Assembly: GCA_965661285.1 (NCBI GenBank)
Contig: CBFIDD010000001.1
Coordinates: 468,852-532,851 of the forward strand
Reading direction: 5' to 3'
From: Poseidonia sp.
GTDB taxonomy: Archaea > Thermoplasmatota > Poseidoniia > Poseidoniales > Poseidoniaceae
DNA: 64,000 bases
The notes below the pieces were generated by a model. The model made no database searches, had not been told where the DNA came from, and saw only the letters and a program-made list of their open reading frames with translations. Shown here piece by piece: positions 27,698 through 36,125 of the stretch. The first letter of the stretch is position 1. Every line of letters begins with the position of its first letter. Position numbers and translations under genes: made by a program.

Positions 27698-28141
27698 TCA
27701 ACGCTTTTTGAGGCTCTTTCGCTTCTTGAAACTGCTGCGCTGTTGCGTGTTTTTCCGCTGGGAGCGAGCACGGCGGTCGCCGGTTTTGGGCCCGCTTGCC
27801 GATTGTTTGACGGCTTCTTGACGCTGATTGCGCTGCATTTCCCTCCATTGACCGCCGATGAGTTGGAGCAACTCTTCTTTGCTCCCCGCACCGATGGATT
27901 CCTTCGCCCCTTTGGCCGATACCCAGAGACGACCTTCCCGGCCGTGAGGACGGCGTGGATGAGACGTGTGCTCTTCACGCTTGATTTTGCGAAGACCCAC
28001 CGCACGTGCCGCCATGAAGAGGCCCTCGAGGTCTGGCTTGAGGACCGAAGCGTCTTTTGGAACGCGCCGACCGGCACGGCGAGATTGTTTCATGTCAAAA
28101 TAACCCGGCCAAACACAAAGTCGGTCGGGGTTATGGTCCAT
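27698..28141 (-). CDS. srp19: Signal recognition particle 19 kDa protein
   Basis: VWPGYFD...SRRAGRRVPK...HPRRP...GR pattern with a basic tail; next to eS8. Confidence 0.92.
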   Translation of the reverse strand: MDHNPDRLCVWPGYFDMKQSRRAGRRVPKDASVLKPDLEGLFMAARAVGLRKIKREEHTSHPRRPHGREGRLWVSAKGAKESIGAGSKEELLQLIGGQWREMQRNQRQEAVKQSASGPKTGDRRARSQRKNTQQRSSFKKRKSLKKR

Positions 28142-28195
28142 GTGCTCGCCTCATACGCCGCTCACGGCGTGTTCTCTTCAAGCCGTCGCTCGGCT

Positions 28196-28576
28196 TCACT
28201 CGAGCAGGACGCCGTTGATGACACCGTCTTTGCCCGGGCGGGACGTGATGCGCACTCGACCTTTGTCCGTCTCGATGACGGCACCTTTGACCAGGATGTT
28301 TCGTCGAACGTAGTTGGGGTCGGAAGCGTTCTCAACCACGCTGTGAATCGTGCCCAAGGTCGTCTTCCCGTTCTTCGGGTTGTTGATGCTCACTTGGTTG
28401 GCGGCCATCACGCGGACCATGGTGTTGCCACCGGTCTTGCGGTAGACCTTCCGCTTGGGTTCGCCAACGAGGGCGAATTGCTTCTCAGTGGAAATTTCGG
28501 TCGCTCGCTTGCCGCGTGCCTGAACCTTGCGTCCACCGGATGGTTTGCGTCGTGAAATTCCGTGCCATTGAGCCAT
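28196..28576 (-). CDS. rps8e: 30S ribosomal protein eS8
   Basis: WHGISRRKPSGG...NYVRRNILVKGAVIET...VRITSRPGKDGVINGVL. Confidence 0.97.
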   Translation of the reverse strand: MAQWHGISRRKPSGGRKVQARGKRATEISTEKQFALVGEPKRKVYRKTGGNTMVRVMAANQVSINNPKNGKTTLGTIHSVVENASDPNYVRRNILVKGAVIETDKGRVRITSRPGKDGVINGVLLE

Positions 28577-28629
28577 AGGGATGTCTCCTGCGTCGCCACC
28601 CACCGGCAGGGGCTATATCAAAGCAACCC

Positions 28630-29238
28630 TCACGCACAGCCAACATCAATCTCCGAAAGGCAATCCCCTTCGGCGTTGGTCAGACGCGCCACGACCCTGT
28701 CGCCCGGATGCAATTCCCCCACTCCCTGAGGCGTGCCCGTGAACAACACATCGCCTTCTGCTACAGGAGCCCATGTTCGCAAGGATTCGATTTGCTGCCG
28801 TGGCGAGACCGACATTTCGTGCAGGGGAGTTGACTGGCGAGGGGTACCGTTCACCTCGAGTGAGACATGGAGGCCGACGTCGTTGGACACGATGGCTTCC
28901 CAGGACCCATCCCACAACGACCACGGTCCAATCACCGCCGAGGACGTGAAGCATTTTCCTTTGGCCCACGGCAGTTGCTCTGCACGGAGGTCGCTCTGCG
29001 TCGCACGGTCGGTCAAATCCAAGCCGACAGCCAACGCCACCGGCTTCAGGCCAGGGCCGATACGAACGACGCACTCAACCTCGTGATGCACCTCACCAGG
29101 ATGTTGGCTGACAGGAATCGGCCCGCTGTCGTGGAGGCAACCCGATGGTTTGACGAAGAAGATCGGTTCGGCAGGCAGTTGATTTCCCAGCTCCAACGCG
29201 TGTTTGGAGAAGGTTCGGATGGTGCACCACATGGCCAT
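28630..29238 (-). CDS. Fumarylacetoacetate hydrolase family protein
   Basis: PIFFVKP, HHEVE, GLDLTDR, PWAKGK and GDVLFTGTPQGVG. Confidence 0.93.
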   Translation of the reverse strand: MAMWCTIRTFSKHALELGNQLPAEPIFFVKPSGCLHDSGPIPVSQHPGEVHHEVECVVRIGPGLKPVALAVGLDLTDRATQSDLRAEQLPWAKGKCFTSSAVIGPWSLWDGSWEAIVSNDVGLHVSLEVNGTPRQSTPLHEMSVSPRQQIESLRTWAPVAEGDVLFTGTPQGVGELHPGDRVVARLTNAEGDCLSEIDVGCA

Positions 29239-29313
29239 GGTTTGATGACAGGGTTTTGGTTCATCAAGAGCGCGATGCCCAAGGATGATAGCCCCGCCGC
29301 CCTCGTCCGTCTC

Positions 29314-29820
29314 ATGGCCAACGAGTGGAGCATCCGCAAGCGGCGACCGGTTCGGCGGAAACACATCGCACCGCTGCTGAAGACCTTGGAGAGCGACCTC
29401 GCCATTGACTTGAACATTGACGGTGCTTTTCTCGAAATGGCAGAATACGGCCCGTGGACCATGGTGTTTGTCGACCGCACCCCCCTCGTTGTTGAATTGA
29501 TAGACGACGAAGGAGAACGATGCGTTTTCCTCACGCTCCGCGGCTTTTTACAACACATGGACGCGCTCAAGTGGGTGGAGGTTGACCACGGTGCCATCCC
29601 GTTTCTGATGAACGGTGCCGATTGCATGGTCGCTGGTGTTCACGGGGCAGAGCCTTCGGTTCAATCCGGCGACCTGGTATGGATTCGCGACATGACGCAC
29701 AAACGTCCGCTCGCGCTCGGATGGGCCATGGACGAAGCCGAGGCCCTGGTGGAAAACACCAAAGGAAAGGGCATCAAAACCGTCCATTGGGTCGGAGATG
29801 AACTGTGGGACATGGAATAA
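29314..29820 (+). CDS. PUA-domain RNA-binding protein (MCT-1/Tma20-like, pre-PUA + PUA)
   Basis: VDHGAIPFLMNGADCMVAGV...KGKGIKTVHWVGDELW. Confidence 0.88.
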   Translation: MANEWSIRKRRPVRRKHIAPLLKTLESDLAIDLNIDGAFLEMAEYGPWTMVFVDRTPLVVELIDDEGERCVFLTLRGFLQHMDALKWVEVDHGAIPFLMNGADCMVAGVHGAEPSVQSGDLVWIRDMTHKRPLALGWAMDEAEALVENTKGKGIKTVHWVGDELWDME

Positions 29821-29867
29821 ACAGCCCCGGGAAGAACCCAAATAAGGGAGCAGAAGGAGGGTATACT

Positions 29868-30470
29868 ATGATGCGCAGGGTTTCCCTCGTTCTGGCGTTT
29901 TGTATGATGCTTTCAGCCATCGCTGGCGCGCATGCTGGTGAAAGCGAAGGTGGAGAAGACGTCAACCCCGGCGACGATGTGCCTTTTGAGGTGATTGAGC
30001 GGACGACGCCCTCGCAGGACAGTACGCCGTGGTCGCTGAGCGTTGCGCTCGACCAAGACGCTGTTGACAACGGTACGACGCTTGAAATCACCACCCAAAT
30101 TTGCCTGAACAATGGCGTATGCGACCCGCCCATGAAACAAGACGCCACCGTGAGTGATGATGGAAGCACCTACAGCATGGCGTTGGAGCCGCCATCCGAC
30201 CACTCGTACGTGAACTGGCGCATCAAGGCCACCTACCCAGACGAATCCACCGAGAACTTCCCGAACGGCGAATGGTACAAGACGTGGTCTTCGTGCTACT
30301 ACCAAGCCGATGGGTACGGCGGTATCCACGCTGACGGAGATGGCTGCAACGTGCCCGGCTCGGGCGAAAGCGAGGGTTTCTTGCCGTCGGTTGGGATGCT
30401 GATGACCTTGGTCGCCGCCTGCGGAGCAGCGGTAGCGGTGGCCGGGTGGTCGTCGCGAAACCGAGCGTGA
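29868..30470 (+). CDS. Secreted protein with C-terminal membrane anchor
   Basis: GGAGG RBS, signal peptide, Cys pairs, and GFLPSVG + TM + basic tail. Confidence 0.75.
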   Translation: MMRRVSLVLAFCMMLSAIAGAHAGESEGGEDVNPGDDVPFEVIERTTPSQDSTPWSLSVALDQDAVDNGTTLEITTQICLNNGVCDPPMKQDATVSDDGSTYSMALEPPSDHSYVNWRIKATYPDESTENFPNGEWYKTWSSCYYQADGYGGIHADGDGCNVPGSGESEGFLPSVGMLMTLVAACGAAVAVAGWSSRNRA

Positions 30471-30474
30471 GTCC

Positions 30475-30876
30475 TCAGCGATTGGCTTGATGTTCAACCA
30501 AACGCTCGATGAAGCGGCGCTGTTCCATTGACCACGCCGTGAGAAGCACGCTGACGCTGGTTCGCTCCTTGTTCAATTGGCCCTCGGAAAACCCGGCGGC
30601 CATCAGATCGCTTTCGACCAGAGGAAGATGCTCGCCGGTCATGACAAGCCGGCAGCCGTCGGCTTCAATCCGTGCAGAACCCCACGCAAAGGCGAGGGTG
30701 GCCTCCTCGGCTTCAAACTCAAGTCCGCCGGCGCGCAGGAAGCGTTGAAGGGCTGCAAACAACGCCTCGCCGTCGCCTTTCTGGCCGTCGTCCACACCGC
30801 CATAGGCCGAGAGAAAATCCAACTCGGTTTCGTTCTGTGTCATCAGGTGGTCAAGGCCCCGGGCGTCCTCGCTCAT
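30475..30876 (-). CDS. Hypothetical protein
   Basis: 133-aa ORF whose ATG overlaps the stop of the upstream SAP gene (TGATG). Confidence 0.65.
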   Translation of the reverse strand: MSEDARGLDHLMTQNETELDFLSAYGGVDDGQKGDGEALFAALQRFLRAGGLEFEAEEATLAFAWGSARIEADGCRLVMTGEHLPLVESDLMAAGFSEGQLNKERTSVSVLLTAWSMEQRRFIERLVEHQANR

Positions 30877-33116
30877 CAGCCCAACTCCTCGACGGAAAGA
30901 CTGGTCCACCCGATGAGTCGACCGTCGGTAGCGTCGGCGAGGAGGGAGAAACTGCGGTCTTTGTTGCCGTCTTCCCACTGCCGCTGAACGTCCACCGTCG
31001 TGGCACCTGAGGTATCGAGGAAATCGCTGAAGTCAATACCAAAACCGGTGCCGGGAACGACGACGAGGTAGCCCATGCTCGTGGTGGCGTGGGGACCGTT
31101 GTTGTCGTAGAGCCCCATGGGCCCGGTCAACGCCGGGAAACGTTGGTCGTCCATCAATCGGGATTCAATGTCGTGGAGGGGAAGCACCTTGGGAATCGCA
31201 TCCCGATTGTGGGTAATGGATTCGTCAAACGTGCCTTTGGCAATGTATTCGCAAACCAGCGCTTCACTTCCCCCACCGGAGACCGAAAAGTGGAGCCAAC
31301 CGGCCGTGGTATCGCTGTCCACCCAGGAGAGATTCCACTCCGTCGCCGTGCCGTTCTGATGGTCCACGGCTCGCCAGACATACCCGTCGTTTTGCAAGGC
31401 CGTGACCGCTCCAGAGGCCACGCCGCTGAATTCATCAATGCAAGTCATGGCCACGTCGAGCGGATGTTGACGCACGGTGGAGTTGTCGGGAAGATGGGTG
31501 GCGTCAACGCCCCAATTCACGAGTTCGTCGTCATCGGGATTGAGGTCGTTGGCTTGCGGACGGTTATCGTAGGTCTTGCCCAATTCAATGGCTTTGATAC
31601 CCCGGGAAAGCGTGGTTTGCTCGAACGTGTGGTGGAGTTCAATCTCACCTTCCGGCAACACGGCATCAACACCTCGCTGCTGCCAAGCTGAACAACTGCT
31701 CTGGGAGGCTTCGCTGCTGCTGATGGCCACATCGACCGTTTGGCGGGCAGCCCACGGACTATCGGCGTCCAACCACATCGTCATGGATGCATACCCGAGA
31801 CAGAAATCGCGAACATCCCGATGGCTGGCGGTCACCTTCCACATGCTGGTGGATCCGACCTTTTCAGAACCGGTCACCCGCCATTCCCATCCAGAGCTGG
31901 TTCCGGTCGCATCTTTGGTGATGTAGGCGTTGCCAAAGAAGTCAGCCAGTTCAACCGGTGCGATGACCATGCCAAGACCGGGTGAGAGTTCCTCAAGGTC
32001 GCCCAAAAGCCCGCCCACACCGTAGGTGAACGCGGTTCCCTCGTAGGCGGTGGCCGAAAGGGTGGCGTCGAATTCGAGTTCCGTGGCCAGAACGACCTGT
32101 TCGCGCAATTCCTTCCAGCTTTTCAGGGTCAAGTCTGCTTGCCCGGTGGTGGTGTCGGTGGTGAAATCCGAGCATTTCGAAGCGATGGGGTAGTGGCCCG
32201 AGACGTCAAATTGTGAAAACGACATCTCGTTCACGCTCTCCACGCCCAACCACGACATGCCCTGCCCGCCTCGGATTTTTACCGCACCGAGACGGTCATC
32301 GGACGACTGGGTGCTCAACTCAACCCCCGTGCCTTCGGTGATGGACACCGTGCTCTCTCCTTGAAACGACAAGCGGATTTTGCAGTAGTTCGGGGGGTCG
32401 TCAAGGCGGTCGGTAACGAGTTGTACGTATTCTTCGGAAGCGAGGAAACTGCCTTCGGTGATCATGTAGCCCATGCGGTCGCCGTAGCGCAGTGAATCTG
32501 CGGTGAACGGCTCAAGTTGGTTGTTCACGTAGTACCAACCGCCTGCCCCAAGCAGCACCAAGGTGAGAAGAACAGCAACGGTCTGCGGGCGCCGTACCAT
32601 TTCCATGAGGGTCGTGGCCTCGTTTTCACCGGTTGCAAGCGTTTTGCTGGGTGAACGAGATGGGAGCGGAACAACCGGTTGGTCCTCGACATCCTCGGCC
32701 TCGACCGGCGCATCGTCATCGATCAGGTCGGCTTCGAGAATTTCCGCCTCGAGGACATCGTCATCCTTCGTGTCCACGTCGGGCTTTCTACGGGACGGTG
32801 GGTCGGTGGTTGGAAGCGGGACCCTTTCTATCGTATCATCGTCCTCAAGGGAAAGCATGACCGGTTCGTCTTCGTCGTCAGCATCGTCCCCCTTCGTCTC
32901 GGGTTCAGCCTCGGGCGTCTCCTCTGCCGTGGTGTGGAAGGTGGAGGTTTCTTCATCAAAGACCTCAATGCCAAGGGTCTCCTTGTCGACGCCCGCCTCG
33001 AGCAAACGGGCCAATAATTCGGCCTTTTTTCCCGTGGCAGAGAGGTCGTTCAGGACGCACAGCGCCTTGAGTTTCGCCACCGTGAGGTTGGTGGTCAGTC
33101 CCTCTCCCATGGTCAT
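30876..33116 (-). CDS. SAP-domain single-pass membrane protein with large ectodomain
   Basis: N-terminal LTVAKLKALCVLNDLSATGKKAELLARLL (SAP motif), acidic linker, TM VAVLLTLVLLGAGGWYYV, and a ~550-aa C-terminal domain. Confidence 0.85.
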   Translation of the reverse strand: MTMGEGLTTNLTVAKLKALCVLNDLSATGKKAELLARLLEAGVDKETLGIEVFDEETSTFHTTAEETPEAEPETKGDDADDEDEPVMLSLEDDDTIERVPLPTTDPPSRRKPDVDTKDDDVLEAEILEADLIDDDAPVEAEDVEDQPVVPLPSRSPSKTLATGENEATTLMEMVRRPQTVAVLLTLVLLGAGGWYYVNNQLEPFTADSLRYGDRMGYMITEGSFLASEEYVQLVTDRLDDPPNYCKIRLSFQGESTVSITEGTGVELSTQSSDDRLGAVKIRGGQGMSWLGVESVNEMSFSQFDVSGHYPIASKCSDFTTDTTTGQADLTLKSWKELREQVVLATELEFDATLSATAYEGTAFTYGVGGLLGDLEELSPGLGMVIAPVELADFFGNAYITKDATGTSSGWEWRVTGSEKVGSTSMWKVTASHRDVRDFCLGYASMTMWLDADSPWAARQTVDVAISSSEASQSSCSAWQQRGVDAVLPEGEIELHHTFEQTTLSRGIKAIELGKTYDNRPQANDLNPDDDELVNWGVDATHLPDNSTVRQHPLDVAMTCIDEFSGVASGAVTALQNDGYVWRAVDHQNGTATEWNLSWVDSDTTAGWLHFSVSGGGSEALVCEYIAKGTFDESITHNRDAIPKVLPLHDIESRLMDDQRFPALTGPMGLYDNNGPHATTSMGYLVVVPGTGFGIDFSDFLDTSGATTVDVQRQWEDGNKDRSFSLLADATDGRLIGWTSLSVEELG

Positions 33117-33203
33117 ACCTCATCAAACCGTAGGCTTGGTGCCTTTCAAGGCTGGCGCTGATTTGATGGCCTTTTGCATCAATTCAACGTCTTGAAGCGC
33201 GGG

Positions 33204-34247
33204 TCAACCTTCGTGGGGTACGTACGAGCCATCGGTGTTTTGGACGTAGACGGTTTGGTCGTACGTGCCATCTGGCAACTTCCGGAAGAAATACCCGTTT
33301 TCCGCAGGCTCAAACGTGCCCTCGTCTGCTGATGTGCCCTCGTCCGCTGATGACGGTGGGGCTGTGGCAGCAGCATCGGGTTCGGCATCACTGTCCGTGG
33401 GTGCACCGGGCGGACCGGTTGGCCCAGTGTTCTCTTCACCGGGAGCACCCGGGGGACCGGCAGGACCTGCAGGCGGAGCGCCGCCTGGTCCCGCAGCGAT
33501 GCGGGCCTTGCTGGCTTCAGAAAGCACCTTGGATTCCGTGGTTTCGTTCTCCCCCTCGAGGATTTTGCGAACGGCCGCACCGTGTTTTTGTGCGCCGACA
33601 AAAGCAAAGGCAGAGAGGCCCAAACAGAGCAGGCCGAGCAGGCCGCCAAAGAATTGGTTGGGGTAGAGTTTGCCTTCCACACTCAACGCATTGCCAGAGG
33701 TTGTGATCTTCTCGCCGTTGCCGTCGATGTACTCGGCGATGAGGCAGTACTGGCCGGGGTCGATGTTGAATTCGAAATCATACGTGCCGTCGGCAAGGAC
33801 GCGACTGGTGGCCTCTTGATACTGGTAATCGTGGGAATTGCCGGCCTTGGCCTCCTGCATCTTCTCGCTGAGGGTAAAGTCGGTGCAGTCGTCTTGCTGG
33901 ATGACATACACGGCGATGTTGATGGCCGACTGCGCAGGAGGTTGCTCGGCCGTGACGGTGAGCCGCATCGGGACATCGAAGAGACCTTCGCCGTCAATGG
34001 GAAGGCCCCAAACACGACCGATGTCTTTCTCCGCAGATTTACTGAAATCATCGTAATCGGCCGAGAACGGCATGGGGAAGAGGGCAAAAGCGAACAGAAT
34101 CGCAGCCACGCCGAGGTAGAGAAAAACGTTCCAGCGTGCTTTCTTCAAGCGTTCTTTGCGCTCTTCGATGGACATGTCTTCCATCAACTCGTCTTGGTCC
34201 TCGTCAACGGCCAGTGCGCCTGCTGCATCAAGTTCCTCTTCGGTCAT
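33204..34247 (-). CDS. Two-TM membrane protein with Pro/Gly-rich cytoplasmic tail
   Basis: Two TMs flank a beta-rich domain; GPPG-rich linker, then an aromatic C-terminal module. Confidence 0.75.
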   Translation of the reverse strand: MTEEELDAAGALAVDEDQDELMEDMSIEERKERLKKARWNVFLYLGVAAILFAFALFPMPFSADYDDFSKSAEKDIGRVWGLPIDGEGLFDVPMRLTVTAEQPPAQSAINIAVYVIQQDDCTDFTLSEKMQEAKAGNSHDYQYQEATSRVLADGTYDFEFNIDPGQYCLIAEYIDGNGEKITTSGNALSVEGKLYPNQFFGGLLGLLCLGLSAFAFVGAQKHGAAVRKILEGENETTESKVLSEASKARIAAGPGGAPPAGPAGPPGAPGEENTGPTGPPGAPTDSDAEPDAAATAPPSSADEGTSADEGTFEPAENGYFFRKLPDGTYDQTVYVQNTDGSYVPHEG

Positions 34248-34347
34248 GAAAGCCCGAAATCCGCCGAGCACTTCAAGACCGCGACCGAAGAATTAGTGCA
34301 CAATGGGACCCGAAGGAACCAAGAACGACGCCACGGGGCCTCTGGGC

Positions 34348-35547
34348 ATGGGGCTTCGCTTGGCGGTTTTGAGTCGGGGGCCAAGGCTGTACAGCACCCG
34401 TCGTATCGTTGAGGAAGCGAAAAAACGCAACATCGACGTCGAGGTTTGCGACCCGATGAAATTCTCGATGGTGGTGGACCAGGGCAGCGTCGATGTGCTC
34501 CACCGAGGTCGGCCCTTTGCCAAAGACGCGGTGATTCCGCGCATCGGCCACTCCATCACACAACACGGGGTTGCGGTCCTTCGCCACATTGAGCAGTTGG
34601 GCATCTGGACAGCCAACACCGGCCGGGGTATTTTGCAAAGCAGAGACAAACTCCACGCTTCTCAACTTCTGGCTCGCAACCGAATCCCGGTGCCAAAAAC
34701 AGTCTACGTGAGGGAAATTCTCGATGTTGAGCAGGCCATCGAAACCGTTGGTGGCTTGCCCGTGGTCGTCAAGGTCACCCAAGGTACTCAAGGCGATGGC
34801 GTCTTCCTGCGCCACACCGCCTTTGAGGTGCGTAATCTGGTTCAGGGCTTGCTGATGACGGGAAAATCCGTCTTGGTTCAGGAATACATCGCGGAATCCC
34901 ACGGCAAAGACATTCGCGCCTTGGTGGTGGGCGACAAGGTCGTGGCCTGCATGCGCAGGCGAGCCCGCGGGCGTGAATTTCGGAGTAACTTTCACCTGAA
35001 CGGCACCGTTGAGGCGGTTGAACTCCCTGAGGGTTATGCCGAAGCAGCGTGCAGAGCAGCTCGTATCTTGGGCCTCAACATTGCAGGCGTTGACCTGCTC
35101 GAAGGCAACAACGGCCCGCTGGTGCTGGAGGTGAACTCTTCGCCCGGACTGGAAGGTATCGAGAAAGCCAGCGGCGTGAACGTCGCAGGAGCGATCATCG
35201 ATTACGTCATGGAGGACACGGCCTTTTCGGAGGTGGACATCGGTCAATTGTTGCGAACCGTACCCGGCTCCGGCGTGCTCTCATTGCAACTTCGAAACCA
35301 TCCAAAAATGGTCGGGAAGCGCCTGCGGGAGGTGTTCGCCGCCGTGCCGGTGTTCGCCCTCTCTCGTGGTGACCGCTTGGTGTGGAACCCCGATGAAGAA
35401 CTCCAACTTCGATATGACGATGTGCTGGTGTGCTACGGTGATTTAACCGAATTACGCTCCTCGCTCAAGCAAGCGATGTTGGGCGTGCCACGAGAAGCCC
35501 TGATGTTCGATGAGGCCCAGAGTACGTCCGAACAAACCGAAGGCTGA
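34348..35547 (+). CDS. rimK: RimK-family ATP-grasp alpha-L-glutamate ligase fused to C-terminal RCK_C (TrkA-C) domain
   Basis: YSTRRIVEEA, IPRIG, SRDKL, GTQG, QEYI, EFRSNFH, GVDLL and EVNSSPG; C-terminal VGKRL...SRGD...NP...LRYDDVL. Start may be 34303. Confidence 0.9.
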   Translation: MGLRLAVLSRGPRLYSTRRIVEEAKKRNIDVEVCDPMKFSMVVDQGSVDVLHRGRPFAKDAVIPRIGHSITQHGVAVLRHIEQLGIWTANTGRGILQSRDKLHASQLLARNRIPVPKTVYVREILDVEQAIETVGGLPVVVKVTQGTQGDGVFLRHTAFEVRNLVQGLLMTGKSVLVQEYIAESHGKDIRALVVGDKVVACMRRRARGREFRSNFHLNGTVEAVELPEGYAEAACRAARILGLNIAGVDLLEGNNGPLVLEVNSSPGLEGIEKASGVNVAGAIIDYVMEDTAFSEVDIGQLLRTVPGSGVLSLQLRNHPKMVGKRLREVFAAVPVFALSRGDRLVWNPDEELQLRYDDVLVCYGDLTELRSSLKQAMLGVPREALMFDEAQSTSEQTEG

Positions 35548-35567
35548 GCCGATGGAGCAAGGGGGAG

Positions 35568-36125
35568 TCAAACCTCAACGCTGGGCTGTGGGCGCTCCGA
35601 GGGCCAAAGCATCGTCATGCGAGCCCGGCGAACCACGAGATACATCCCCGCCGAGACGAGAATGCTGACCCCTATGGGTATCGGCCCCCACAACCAAGCG
35701 TCAAACCAGCCATCGAAAATGTAGGCGATGGGGTAGAACGGTTCCAGTCCGTAGGCCCCTGTGTGGGACGGAATATCCGCGAGAAGGTGAGAAAGATAGG
35801 CAACCGCAGCAAGTTTTGTGGTCTGGCTTTTCCGCCAAAACGGAAGAAAGACGATGGCCCAAAACAGGAGGCTGTGGGAAAGCAACCAGGCGTGGTAGGT
35901 CCAATGGTCGAGAATTTCGGGATGATTGAGGAAGTCAACGCCCATTGCGAACGGTATGTCCCGGCCCGCCACCAAGCCCAGATAGGGGTGCACGAGAAGG
36001 ACGTTGGTGATGTCTGGAAGCATCCCAAAGCCGAGGCCAATCAATCGACGATGCTTGATGTCCTTGGGCGCCATCTCACCCAGCATCAGTCCGATAAGCG
36101 CGTGCGTTGCCGTGTCCAAAATCAT
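35568..36125 (-). CDS. Membrane-bound metal-dependent hydrolase (YdjM-like)
   Basis: DTATH, LPD, SHSL and SHLLAD motifs. Confidence 0.85.
   Translation of the reverse strand: MILDTATHALIGLMLGEMAPKDIKHRRLIGLGFGMLPDITNVLLVHPYLGLVAGRDIPFAMGVDFLNHPEILDHWTYHAWLLSHSLLFWAIVFLPFWRKSQTTKLAAVAYLSHLLADIPSHTGAYGLEPFYPIAYIFDGWFDAWLWGPIPIGVSILVSAGMYLVVRRARMTMLWPSERPQPSVEV

Follow-up and report, generated by a model that had tools for sequence, protein, structure and literature searches.

A SAP-domain membrane protein conserved across Poseidoniales and its genomic association with a Soj-type ParA

What is a SAP domain, a module best known for DNA binding and usually regarded as eukaryotic, doing at the tip of a membrane protein in an archaeon? 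The question is raised by a gene in a 64,000-nucleotide stretch of the Poseidonia sp. assembly GCA_965661285.1 (contig CBFIDD010000001.1, positions 468,852 to 532,851; the window in what follows). Its product, here called SAP-TM (P0001), joins an N-terminal SAP domain to an acidic linker, a single transmembrane (TM) helix, and a large external domain, and the gene runs directly into a second one that encodes a small protein, P0002. An earlier note on this DNA had read SAP-TM as a candidate tether of nucleic acid to the envelope or, failing that, as a membrane-held regulator released by proteolysis. We know of no description of chromosome organization or segregation in Poseidoniales. On the evidence set out below, we tentatively propose that SAP-TM is the membrane-embedded, nucleoid-contacting member, whether as anchor or as cargo, of a ParA-type positioning module. 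Among the planktonic archaea of the surface ocean, Poseidoniales are the most abundant, and they have no cultured representatives, according to the abstract of PMC6461757.

The N-terminal domain is recognized by Pfam as PF02037 over residues 10–41, with 32.6 bits against a cut-off of 23.9 (E 5.8e-8), and no other family is found in the protein; the same family is precomputed in 118 of 120 SAP-TM homologs among the matches listed. An AlphaFold2 (AF2) model of SAP-TM, built from a 34-sequence alignment (mean predicted local distance difference test score (pLDDT) of 80.4, predicted template modeling score of 0.70), places the two SAP helices at residues 13–22 and 31–40. Across the same alignment, Leu16, Gly29, Leu34, and Arg37 are invariant and Lys31 is at least 90% conserved. 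No signal peptide was found on SAP-TM, whose N-terminus is the hydrophilic SAP fold itself, as the earlier note had described. Judging by its family, the domain is a putative nucleic-acid-binding module. NCBIfam holds no family for either SAP-TM or P0002, and a sequence search of the PDB with SAP-TM returned nothing meaningful (best E 0.22).

The stretch between the SAP domain and the membrane fits the acidic, disordered linker of some 130 residues that had been anticipated. Residues 46–175 contain 43 Asp or Glu against 9 Lys or Arg (net charge −34), pLDDT falls below 50 over residues 58–167, and the net charge of the linker is negative in all 34 orthologs. Most of the linker is unalignable. 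The part that does align is a pattern of the form hydrophobic–E/D–A–E/D–hydrophobic, mostly present twice, which reads VLEAEILEADLID in the window's protein and is kept in 29 of the 34 ortholog linkers; in the whole genome, SAP-TM is the one place where the tandem form occurs. Mean pairwise identity is 0.44 for the SAP domain and likewise 0.44 for the acidic motif, against 0.15–0.21 for the flanking linker, 0.30 for the TM helix, and 0.30–0.33 for the ectodomain. From this pattern of conservation, the acidic element looks like a docking motif carried on a flexible leash.

Several features suggest that SAP-TM is a type II envelope protein, with its N-terminus inside and its C-terminus outside. 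This orientation is favored because a signal peptide is absent, because the N-terminal 175 residues are partly folded and acidic, and because a pair of arginines (residues 174–175) stands just before the only hydrophobic peak of the protein (residues 179–197; 19-residue Kyte–Doolittle mean of 1.75). In most of the 34 orthologs, the 15 residues on the N-terminal side of the TM helix hold more Lys and Arg than the 15 on the C-terminal side. The alignment counts 205 cysteines in the ectodomain vs 28 on the N-terminal side of the membrane, and the density of N-x-S/T sequons is 0.57 vs 0.24 per 100 residues. Taken together, these distributions point to the same topology that the earlier note had assumed, and its single TM helix followed by a cysteine-containing external domain of about 550 residues is recovered as a helix at residues 177–198 and a domain of 546 residues with six cysteines. 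Glycosylation at an invariant sequon, Asn595, and disulfide bonds within the ectodomain would be consistent with such an arrangement.

SAP-TM is a fixture of its order. It was found in 118 of 121 Poseidoniales genomes, in 55 of the 56 high-quality ones and in 21 of 21 genera, essentially always as a single copy, with identities among orthologs that range from 100% down to ≈25%. Recurrence on this scale places the architecture beyond chance. In a sample of 201 genomes from the phylum, the full-length protein occurred in 34 of the 35 genomes drawn from the two large families of Poseidoniales and in no others; outside the order, this sample yielded matches to the SAP region only and no full-length SAP-TM. 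The names attached to close homologs are Poseidonia sp. and "SAP domain-containing protein."

A clue to function lies in the gene that follows SAP-TM in its relatives. In four relatives' loci, a ParA/Soj-type ATPase, which we call ParA-2, comes immediately after SAP-TM. Pfam assigns two copies of it to AAA_31 (178–179 bits), along with CbiA and MipZ. The closest solved relatives of ParA-2 are bacterial Soj/ParA proteins (E 1e-40 to 1e-53), with Thermus thermophilus and Helicobacter pylori Soj as the best PDB matches, and Sulfolobus solfataricus SegA (7dut) is matched at 1.8e-14. ParA-2 also retains PIRRNIRLAEAP, which is compatible with the consensus for the nonspecific DNA-binding loop and helix of Soj as quoted in a passage of PMC6393308. 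The name ParA-2 was chosen because every genome checked encodes a separate ParA-1 as well; over the main aligned segment, ParA-1 orthologs share 48–85% identity with one another vs 37–41% with ParA-2.

When the 121 genomes were searched at E ≤ 1e-40, ParA-2 was found in 61 of them. In 59 of these 61, SAP-TM is followed immediately by ParA-2 in the same orientation, with a median gap of 152 nt between the matches; in the remaining two, SAP-TM and ParA-2 sit at the ends of separate contigs. The distribution follows family lines: 54 of 59 scored genomes in family f3, 2 of 2 in f2, and 5 of 59 in f1. Within f1, the gene is present in genera g5 and g6 (5/5) and was not detected in g1, the window's own genus (0/14), g2 (0/21), g3 (0/9), g4 (0/9), or g7 (0/1). 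As a separate observation, the ParA-2 proteins at L028:5634-6659, L029:5416-6687, and L030:7903-8895 have an N-terminal extension of variable length with a conserved acidic and hydrophobic element, ..PL[VI]IDVEFVE.., that recalls SAP-TM's acidic tandem motif; this extension is absent from ParA-1.

The second gene of the window's pair, P0002, belongs to the same neighborhood. The TGA stop codon of SAP-TM (30878-30876) and the ATG start codon of P0002 (30876-30874) overlap by one base, and SAP-TM is translationally coupled to P0002 in the window's genome, just as had been noted for this 133-residue gene. Together with the same-strand operon of SAP-TM and ParA-2, this overlap argues for co-expression. 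P0002 was found in 76 of the 121 genomes, by a single sequence and by a 17-sequence profile alike (58/59 in f1, 16/59 in f3). Its placement, tallied by eye, falls into a few arrangements: it abuts SAP-TM in 34 of the 76 genomes (15 in g1, 9 in g3, 8 in g4, 1 in g7, and 1 in g2), and it is separated from SAP-TM by ParA-2 alone in 19, with the same order plausible across a contig break in 3 more. In another 6 genomes it lies ≈5.5 kb from SAP-TM and in 14 it is distant or on another contig, these 20 all belonging to g2.

The most conserved motif of the P0002 family is its N-terminal peptide, which is disordered in a model with a pLDDT of 81.6 (residues 1–32, pLDDT < 50). In genomes that carry ParA-2, this peptide is longer and basic, with a GLGRGL form (..K/R-x-L-G-R-G-L..). 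We take the basic peptide to resemble the ParA-activating N-terminus of bacterial ParB, a motif that could not be confirmed from the literature; our search for papers on a GRGL peptide in ParB or ParA found none. As a general rule, stated in a passage of PMC10241942, partners bind ParA/MinD ATPases through a charged, disordered N-terminus, and the disordered P0002 N-terminus with its invariant arginine matches that rule, which we count in favor of a partner role.

The folded part of P0002 says less about its function. Its best structural matches are YjbR (Z 7.5), DUF419 (Z 7.0), and the C-terminal double-wing DNA-binding domain of MotA (Z 6.9), all below the trust level of 8; type III chaperones score about Z 5, and frataxin likewise falls below MotA. 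Foldseek gave no match at E ≤ 1e-3. Pfam, run on 17 P0002 homologs, recognized no family common to more than one member and neither a ParB_N/CTPase nor a helix-turn-helix domain. No fused or longer forms of P0002 appeared at E ≤ 0.01, in a search that the tool itself counts as weak evidence. A complex prediction for SAP-TM residues 1–176 with P0002, each entered as an alignment, scored 0.00, a value that bears neither way on binding.

Some genera appear to fill the partner's position with a different protein. None of 43 genomes of g11–14, g16, g20, and g21 yielded P0002, and in all eight loci sampled from these genera an EamA-type membrane protein stands right behind ParA-2 (one locus called by Pfam, EamA at 89 bits; the rest by visible similarity). 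A GRGL-type peptide opens the same reading frame as EamA in five of the eight loci and is absent in three, one of which a contig end truncates. In the genera examined, the EamA variant and P0002 did not occur together. The one f2 locus examined has no obvious third gene after ParA-2, and no EamA ortholog was found in the window genome at E ≤ 1e-5.

These observations can be assembled into a mechanism. The ancestral operon would have run from SAP-TM to ParA-2, a bacterial Soj-like ATPase that uses DNA as its matrix, and on to a partner. The SAP domain, on its long acidic leash, would contact the nucleoid from the cytoplasmic side, and ParA would be activated by an Arg/Gly peptide in the disordered N-terminus of the partner, the partner being either P0002, as a small cytoplasmic α/β protein, or the N-terminal tail of the EamA membrane protein. 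The contact between peptide and ParA, and any contact between SAP-TM and P0002, are predicted here from gene order and conservation. Such a module may fix or position the chromosome with respect to the envelope, or else position the envelope protein with respect to the chromosome. The SAP-TM/P0002 pair of the window's genus may then work with the remaining ParA-1 or serve as a passive tether. For the tether suggested by the earlier note, the finding that SAP-TM heads an operon in relatives that also encodes a Soj-type ParA and a partner is independent support, and the nucleic-acid binding at its center stays putative.

A number of findings weigh against this proposal. ParA-2 was not found in the window genome, which is 93% complete, nor in any of 14 others of its genus (0/14), and the full conservation of SAP-TM in that genus argues that its core role is independent of ParA-2. 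No ParA-type ATPase was found beside SAP-TM in the window genome; its ParA-1 (G000:C1:440673-441635) lies 28 kb to the left of the window, and no canonical ParB was found beside either ParA. Nothing resembling a centromeric repeat was seen around the genes: positions 28000–36000 hold only short two-copy matches and a single coding tandem repeat. Because the neighborhood is collinear across the order, the linkage may in part be inherited gene order rather than the product of selection. P0002 is mostly unlinked to SAP-TM in g2: of 21 genomes, the two genes are neighbors in 1, stand ≈5.5 kb apart in 6, share a contig at a distance above 100 kb in 3, and fall on separate contigs in 11. In the window itself, the N-terminus of P0002 is not basic; it is net acidic, with one Arg and several Asp or Glu, and has lost its basic residues while retaining RGLDHL..FLSAYG. 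Finally, SAP domains occur elsewhere in this genome on proteins with quite different tasks, as set out below. A side observation concerns the sole ParB_N (PF02195) match in the genome, a 30-bit hit in a 156-residue frame at G000:C4:121990-122232 on the (−) strand, away from the ParA loci.

A more elaborate form of the idea assigns each protein its own task in a three-part chromosome–envelope machine: the SAP protein binds the chromosome directly, the Soj-type ParA on the nucleoid supplies force or a positional cue, and a ParB-like activating peptide sits on P0002 or on the transporter, the window's genus having lost the motor and kept a bare SAP-TM/P0002 tether. We consider this full assembly rather unlikely. 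If true, it would stand among prokaryotes as the counterpart of the HeH/LEM chromatin tethers of eukaryotes as well as of the polar anchors of bacteria.

The census of SAP domains bears on the choice between DNA and RNA. Seven SAP matches at or above the Pfam cut-off were found in the window genome, and none above it in 14 control genomes (0/14). The carriers are SAP-TM, ribosomal proteins L32e and S3Ae, Pus10, an FKBP, an M28 peptidase, and a 615-residue uncharacterized protein; the six other loci (L001–L005 and L007) lie at G000:C2:412612-412716, C1:461511-461606, C2:293087-293188, C2:386700-386798, C5:125040-125144, and C3:53891-53983. Four of the seven are thus ribosomal, tRNA-modifying, or chaperone proteins, which suggests RNA or the ribosome as the target rather than DNA. 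The M28 peptidase is a second type II protein with the same SAP–linker–TM layout and no obvious segregation role; it brings the SAP-plus-TM proteins, a count that the earlier note had called for, to two of the seven. An acidic linker adjoins the SAP domain in several of these fusions. SAP plus acidic linker is clearly a building block used across the lineage and not a dedicated segregation device. Seven copies in a 2-Mb genome, two of them on ribosomal proteins, amount to a lineage-specific SAP expansion.

On this basis one could see SAP-TM as a ribosome or RNA receptor, in which the SAP domain binds rRNA or another RNA and SAP-TM, like the SAP-bearing M28 peptidase, holds ribosomes, perhaps the very one translating it, at the membrane, the link to ParA being secondary. 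In its favor, L32e, S3Ae, Pus10, and FKBP all score above the cut-off, several SAP proteins share the acidic linker, and a second type II membrane protein carries an N-terminal SAP domain. This account nevertheless leaves unexplained the adjacency to a Soj-type, DNA-matrix ParA in 59 of 61 genomes as well as the conserved acidic motif that is unique to SAP-TM, and it runs counter to the better known role of SAP as a DNA binder. We judge it improbable.

The bulk of the protein lies on the other side of the membrane and invites a different account, in which the order-specific ectodomain does the work, as a surface structure or in the handling of lipids or substrates, while the SAP domain and its leash act as a retention or topology element and the ParA neighborhood is inherited. 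The ectodomain makes up 73% of SAP-TM, is modeled at a pLDDT of ≈90, and contains an invariant sequon and six cysteines (245, 315, 439, 475, 559, and 622), all invariant in the 34-sequence alignment; the region is collinear across the order, and SAP-TM persists where ParA-2 was not detected. Yet the SAP domain and the acidic motif outrank the ectodomain in conservation, which would be needless for a mere topology tag, and both the one-base overlap with the P0002 start and the tight same-strand arrangement with ParA-2 speak for co-expression. A plain envelope protein of this kind therefore seems to us a poor prospect, about on a par with the RNA receptor.

The ectodomain itself has few matches: a search of 1.84 billion cluster representatives gave only 108 at E ≤ 1e-3. 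In VIA-align, its first part (residues ≈202–510) superposes on DUF1849 (Z 10.7, 191 residues aligned, root-mean-square deviation of 4.4), on 12-stranded outer-membrane barrels (Z 9–10.6), and on the LolA/LolB/RseB/MucB/LppX/LprG/VioE class (Z 7–9.9). These barrel-class matches align 140–190 residues at Z 7–10.7, and unrelated outer-membrane barrels score equally well. By the tool's own warning, Z 7–8 is frequent without true kinship, and we therefore read this part only as a large open β-barrel, possibly of the LolA class. The likeness to LolA, LolB, RseB, LppX, and DUF1849 is one of superposition, with identities of only 4–14%, a domain ≈100 residues larger in SAP-TM, and scores near the noise level. 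Among the structure searches for the locus, a protein atlas returned unnamed Thermoplasmatota clusters only (0.89). Foldseek with the whole SAP-TM model gave poor global superpositions only (TMq ≤ 0.16), and the second part (≈511–746), which the fold searches scarcely covered, is left unclassified. The fold search that the earlier note had suggested for the ectodomain thus gave a near-noise barrel assignment for the first part and barely touched the second. The ectodomain would possibly serve to fix the protein in the envelope or to bind a hydrophobic ligand.

That SAP-TM is instead a membrane-bound regulator, whose ectodomain senses an external and perhaps hydrophobic ligand while the SAP domain and acidic region act on DNA, either tethered as in ToxR/CadC or released by proteolysis as in RseA, would suit its type II layout, in which a domain of DNA-binding type faces the cytoplasm and a fold of ligand-binding type, resembling RseB/MucB and LolA-class lipid binders (Z 7–10.7 for the first domain), faces outward, but we think it very improbable. 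Sensors are seldom universal, single-copy, and syntenic; neither a gene for a protease nor a cleavage motif turned up; the fold matches score close to the Z 7–8 that is noise for this tool; and the ParA linkage goes unexplained. Nothing spoke for the proteolytic release raised in the earlier note. Pfam sees SAP alone in the cytoplasmic part of SAP-TM, and no ToxR/CadC-type OmpR winged-helix domain was found there.

The features of the locus are collected in Table 1. For SAP-TM, an alternative start at the third codon (33110) is possible, since a GAGGT lies 6 nt 5' of it and the N-termini of homologs begin MGE...

Table 1. Coordinates of SAP-TM, P0002, and neighboring genes in the window
Feature	Position	Strand	Details
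SAP-TM gene (P0001)	30876..33116	(-)	746 aa: SAP, acidic linker, TM, ectodomain
SAP domain	32994..33089	(-)	Residues 10-41; Pfam PF02037
Acidic disordered linker	32592..32981	(-)	Residues 46-175
Conserved acidic tandem motif in linker	32715..32762	(-)	Residues 119-134, ..VLEAEILEADLID..
Single transmembrane helix	32523..32588	(-)	Residues 177-198; hydrophobicity and AF2 model
Ectodomain	30879..32522	(-)	Residues 199-746 (546 aa counted from residue 201); beta-rich, pLDDT ~90
Invariant N-x-S/T sequon, N595 (WNLSW)	31326..31334	(-)	34/34 aligned sequences
P0002	30475..30876	(-)	133 aa; disordered N-terminal peptide 1-32 and compact alpha/beta domain 33-133
P0002 N-terminal conserved peptide	30781..30876	(-)	..RGLDHL.EQN.TEL.FLSAYG; R6, L8, L11, F21 invariant
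355-aa neighbor upstream of SAP-TM	33204..34271	(-)	Two TM segments; module membership uncertain
221-aa secreted protein	29805..30470	(+)	Signal peptide and C-terminal hydrophobic anchor
RimK-type ATP-grasp ligase	34303..35547	(+)	RimK 183 bits, Rimk_N 91 bits

Three neighbors frame the pair. The 355-residue protein has an acidic N-terminus and a Pro/Gly/Ala-rich tail that contains a tandem ADEGT repeat and ends in ..GYFFRKLPDGTYDQTVYV.., and belongs to no family; its gene is syntenic with SAP-TM in three of the five relatives' loci checked. The gene for the secreted protein is convergent with P0002, their stop codons 4 bp apart, and is syntenic by BLAST in three of five relatives' loci (f1 and f3) and visible by eye in two more. 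The RimK-type gene, divergent from the SAP-TM cluster, adjoins it in all five loci checked. Farther afield, two large membrane proteins of type I-like layout encoded outside the window (G000:C1:204247-207846 and C1:437553-440057) share a motif at their tails, ..GLPDGWTMDQWQWYGHEWL.., and the second of them ends ≈600 bp from ParA-1. The motif also occurs in two SAP-TM orthologs (P0137 and P0159), within the linker on the cytoplasmic side. As a shared sequence element, it hints at a common cytoplasmic docking partner for envelope proteins.

If the positioning module is real, it would give a first handle on chromosome organization and segregation in Poseidoniales, by way of a universal, single-copy SAP membrane protein wired through a novel partner to a bacterial-type ParA, and it would be a rare case in which an integral membrane protein lies at the core of a ParA system. 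Our searches of the literature on archaeal and Marine Group II SAP-domain proteins found no paper on SAP-TM or on the module, and a ParA/MinD review searched by terms gave no passage on a membrane SAP partner. New here are the SAP-TM/ParA-2 counts over 121 genomes, the distinction between ParA-1 and ParA-2, the apparent loss of ParA-2 in the window's genus, the acidic motif, the models of SAP-TM and P0002, and the census of SAP paralogs.

Among known systems, the archaeal ParA machines AspA–ParB–ParA, a three-part plasmid system of pNOB8, and SegAB of Sulfolobales, both named in passages of PMC6393308 and PMC12139799, resemble the proposed module in that DNA binding and ParA contact reside on separate small proteins. 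They differ in that no sequence or fold likeness was seen and neither is known to include a membrane protein, and ParA-2 is far nearer to bacterial Soj (E 1e-50) than to SegA (7dut, E 1.8e-14). SegB, described in a passage of PMC12139799, is a helix-turn-helix protein from Thermoproteota and a few Euryarchaeota. The possibility that P0002 is a SegB was set aside, its model being an α/β sandwich with SegB not among its fold matches.

The bacterial ParABS system (Soj/Spo0J) is matched by the relatives' pairing of a Soj-type ParA with a downstream partner whose disordered N-terminus carries an Arg/Gly peptide. Unlike ParABS, however, the operon is headed by a membrane SAP protein, P0002 has neither a ParB_N/CTPase nor a helix-turn-helix domain, an EamA membrane protein serves as the candidate partner in some genera, no parS-like repeats were seen, and the window genome has no detected ParA-2. 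HubP, PopZ, TipN, and DivIVA/RacA, fixed at the membrane or the cell pole, likewise capture complexes of ParA and ParB; in HubP, the cytoplasmic region is acidic and an external domain binds the wall. Compared by description, these anchors differ in that they lack a SAP domain and are usually encoded outside the par operon.

The eukaryotic HeH/LEM tethers (Heh1/Heh2, MAN1, and LEM2) combine an N-terminal helix-extended-loop-helix domain with a long disordered linker and a membrane anchor, followed by a second TM helix and a C-terminal MSC/winged-helix domain. SAP-TM instead has one TM helix, a 546-residue external domain, and no MSC domain, and its host is a prokaryote without a nuclear envelope. 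Its N-terminal domain scores as SAP rather than HeH: Pfam HeH (PF12949) gave no match to SAP-TM at E ≤ 0.1, and the L32e paralog gave a sub-threshold HeH score only. The likeness to these tethers drawn in the earlier note is consequently one of layout only. Beyond the small SAP/HeH fold, what SAP-TM shares with the tethers of the inner nuclear membrane is an order of parts, in which an N-terminal domain of nucleic-acid-binding type is held on a long disordered linker from a membrane anchor.

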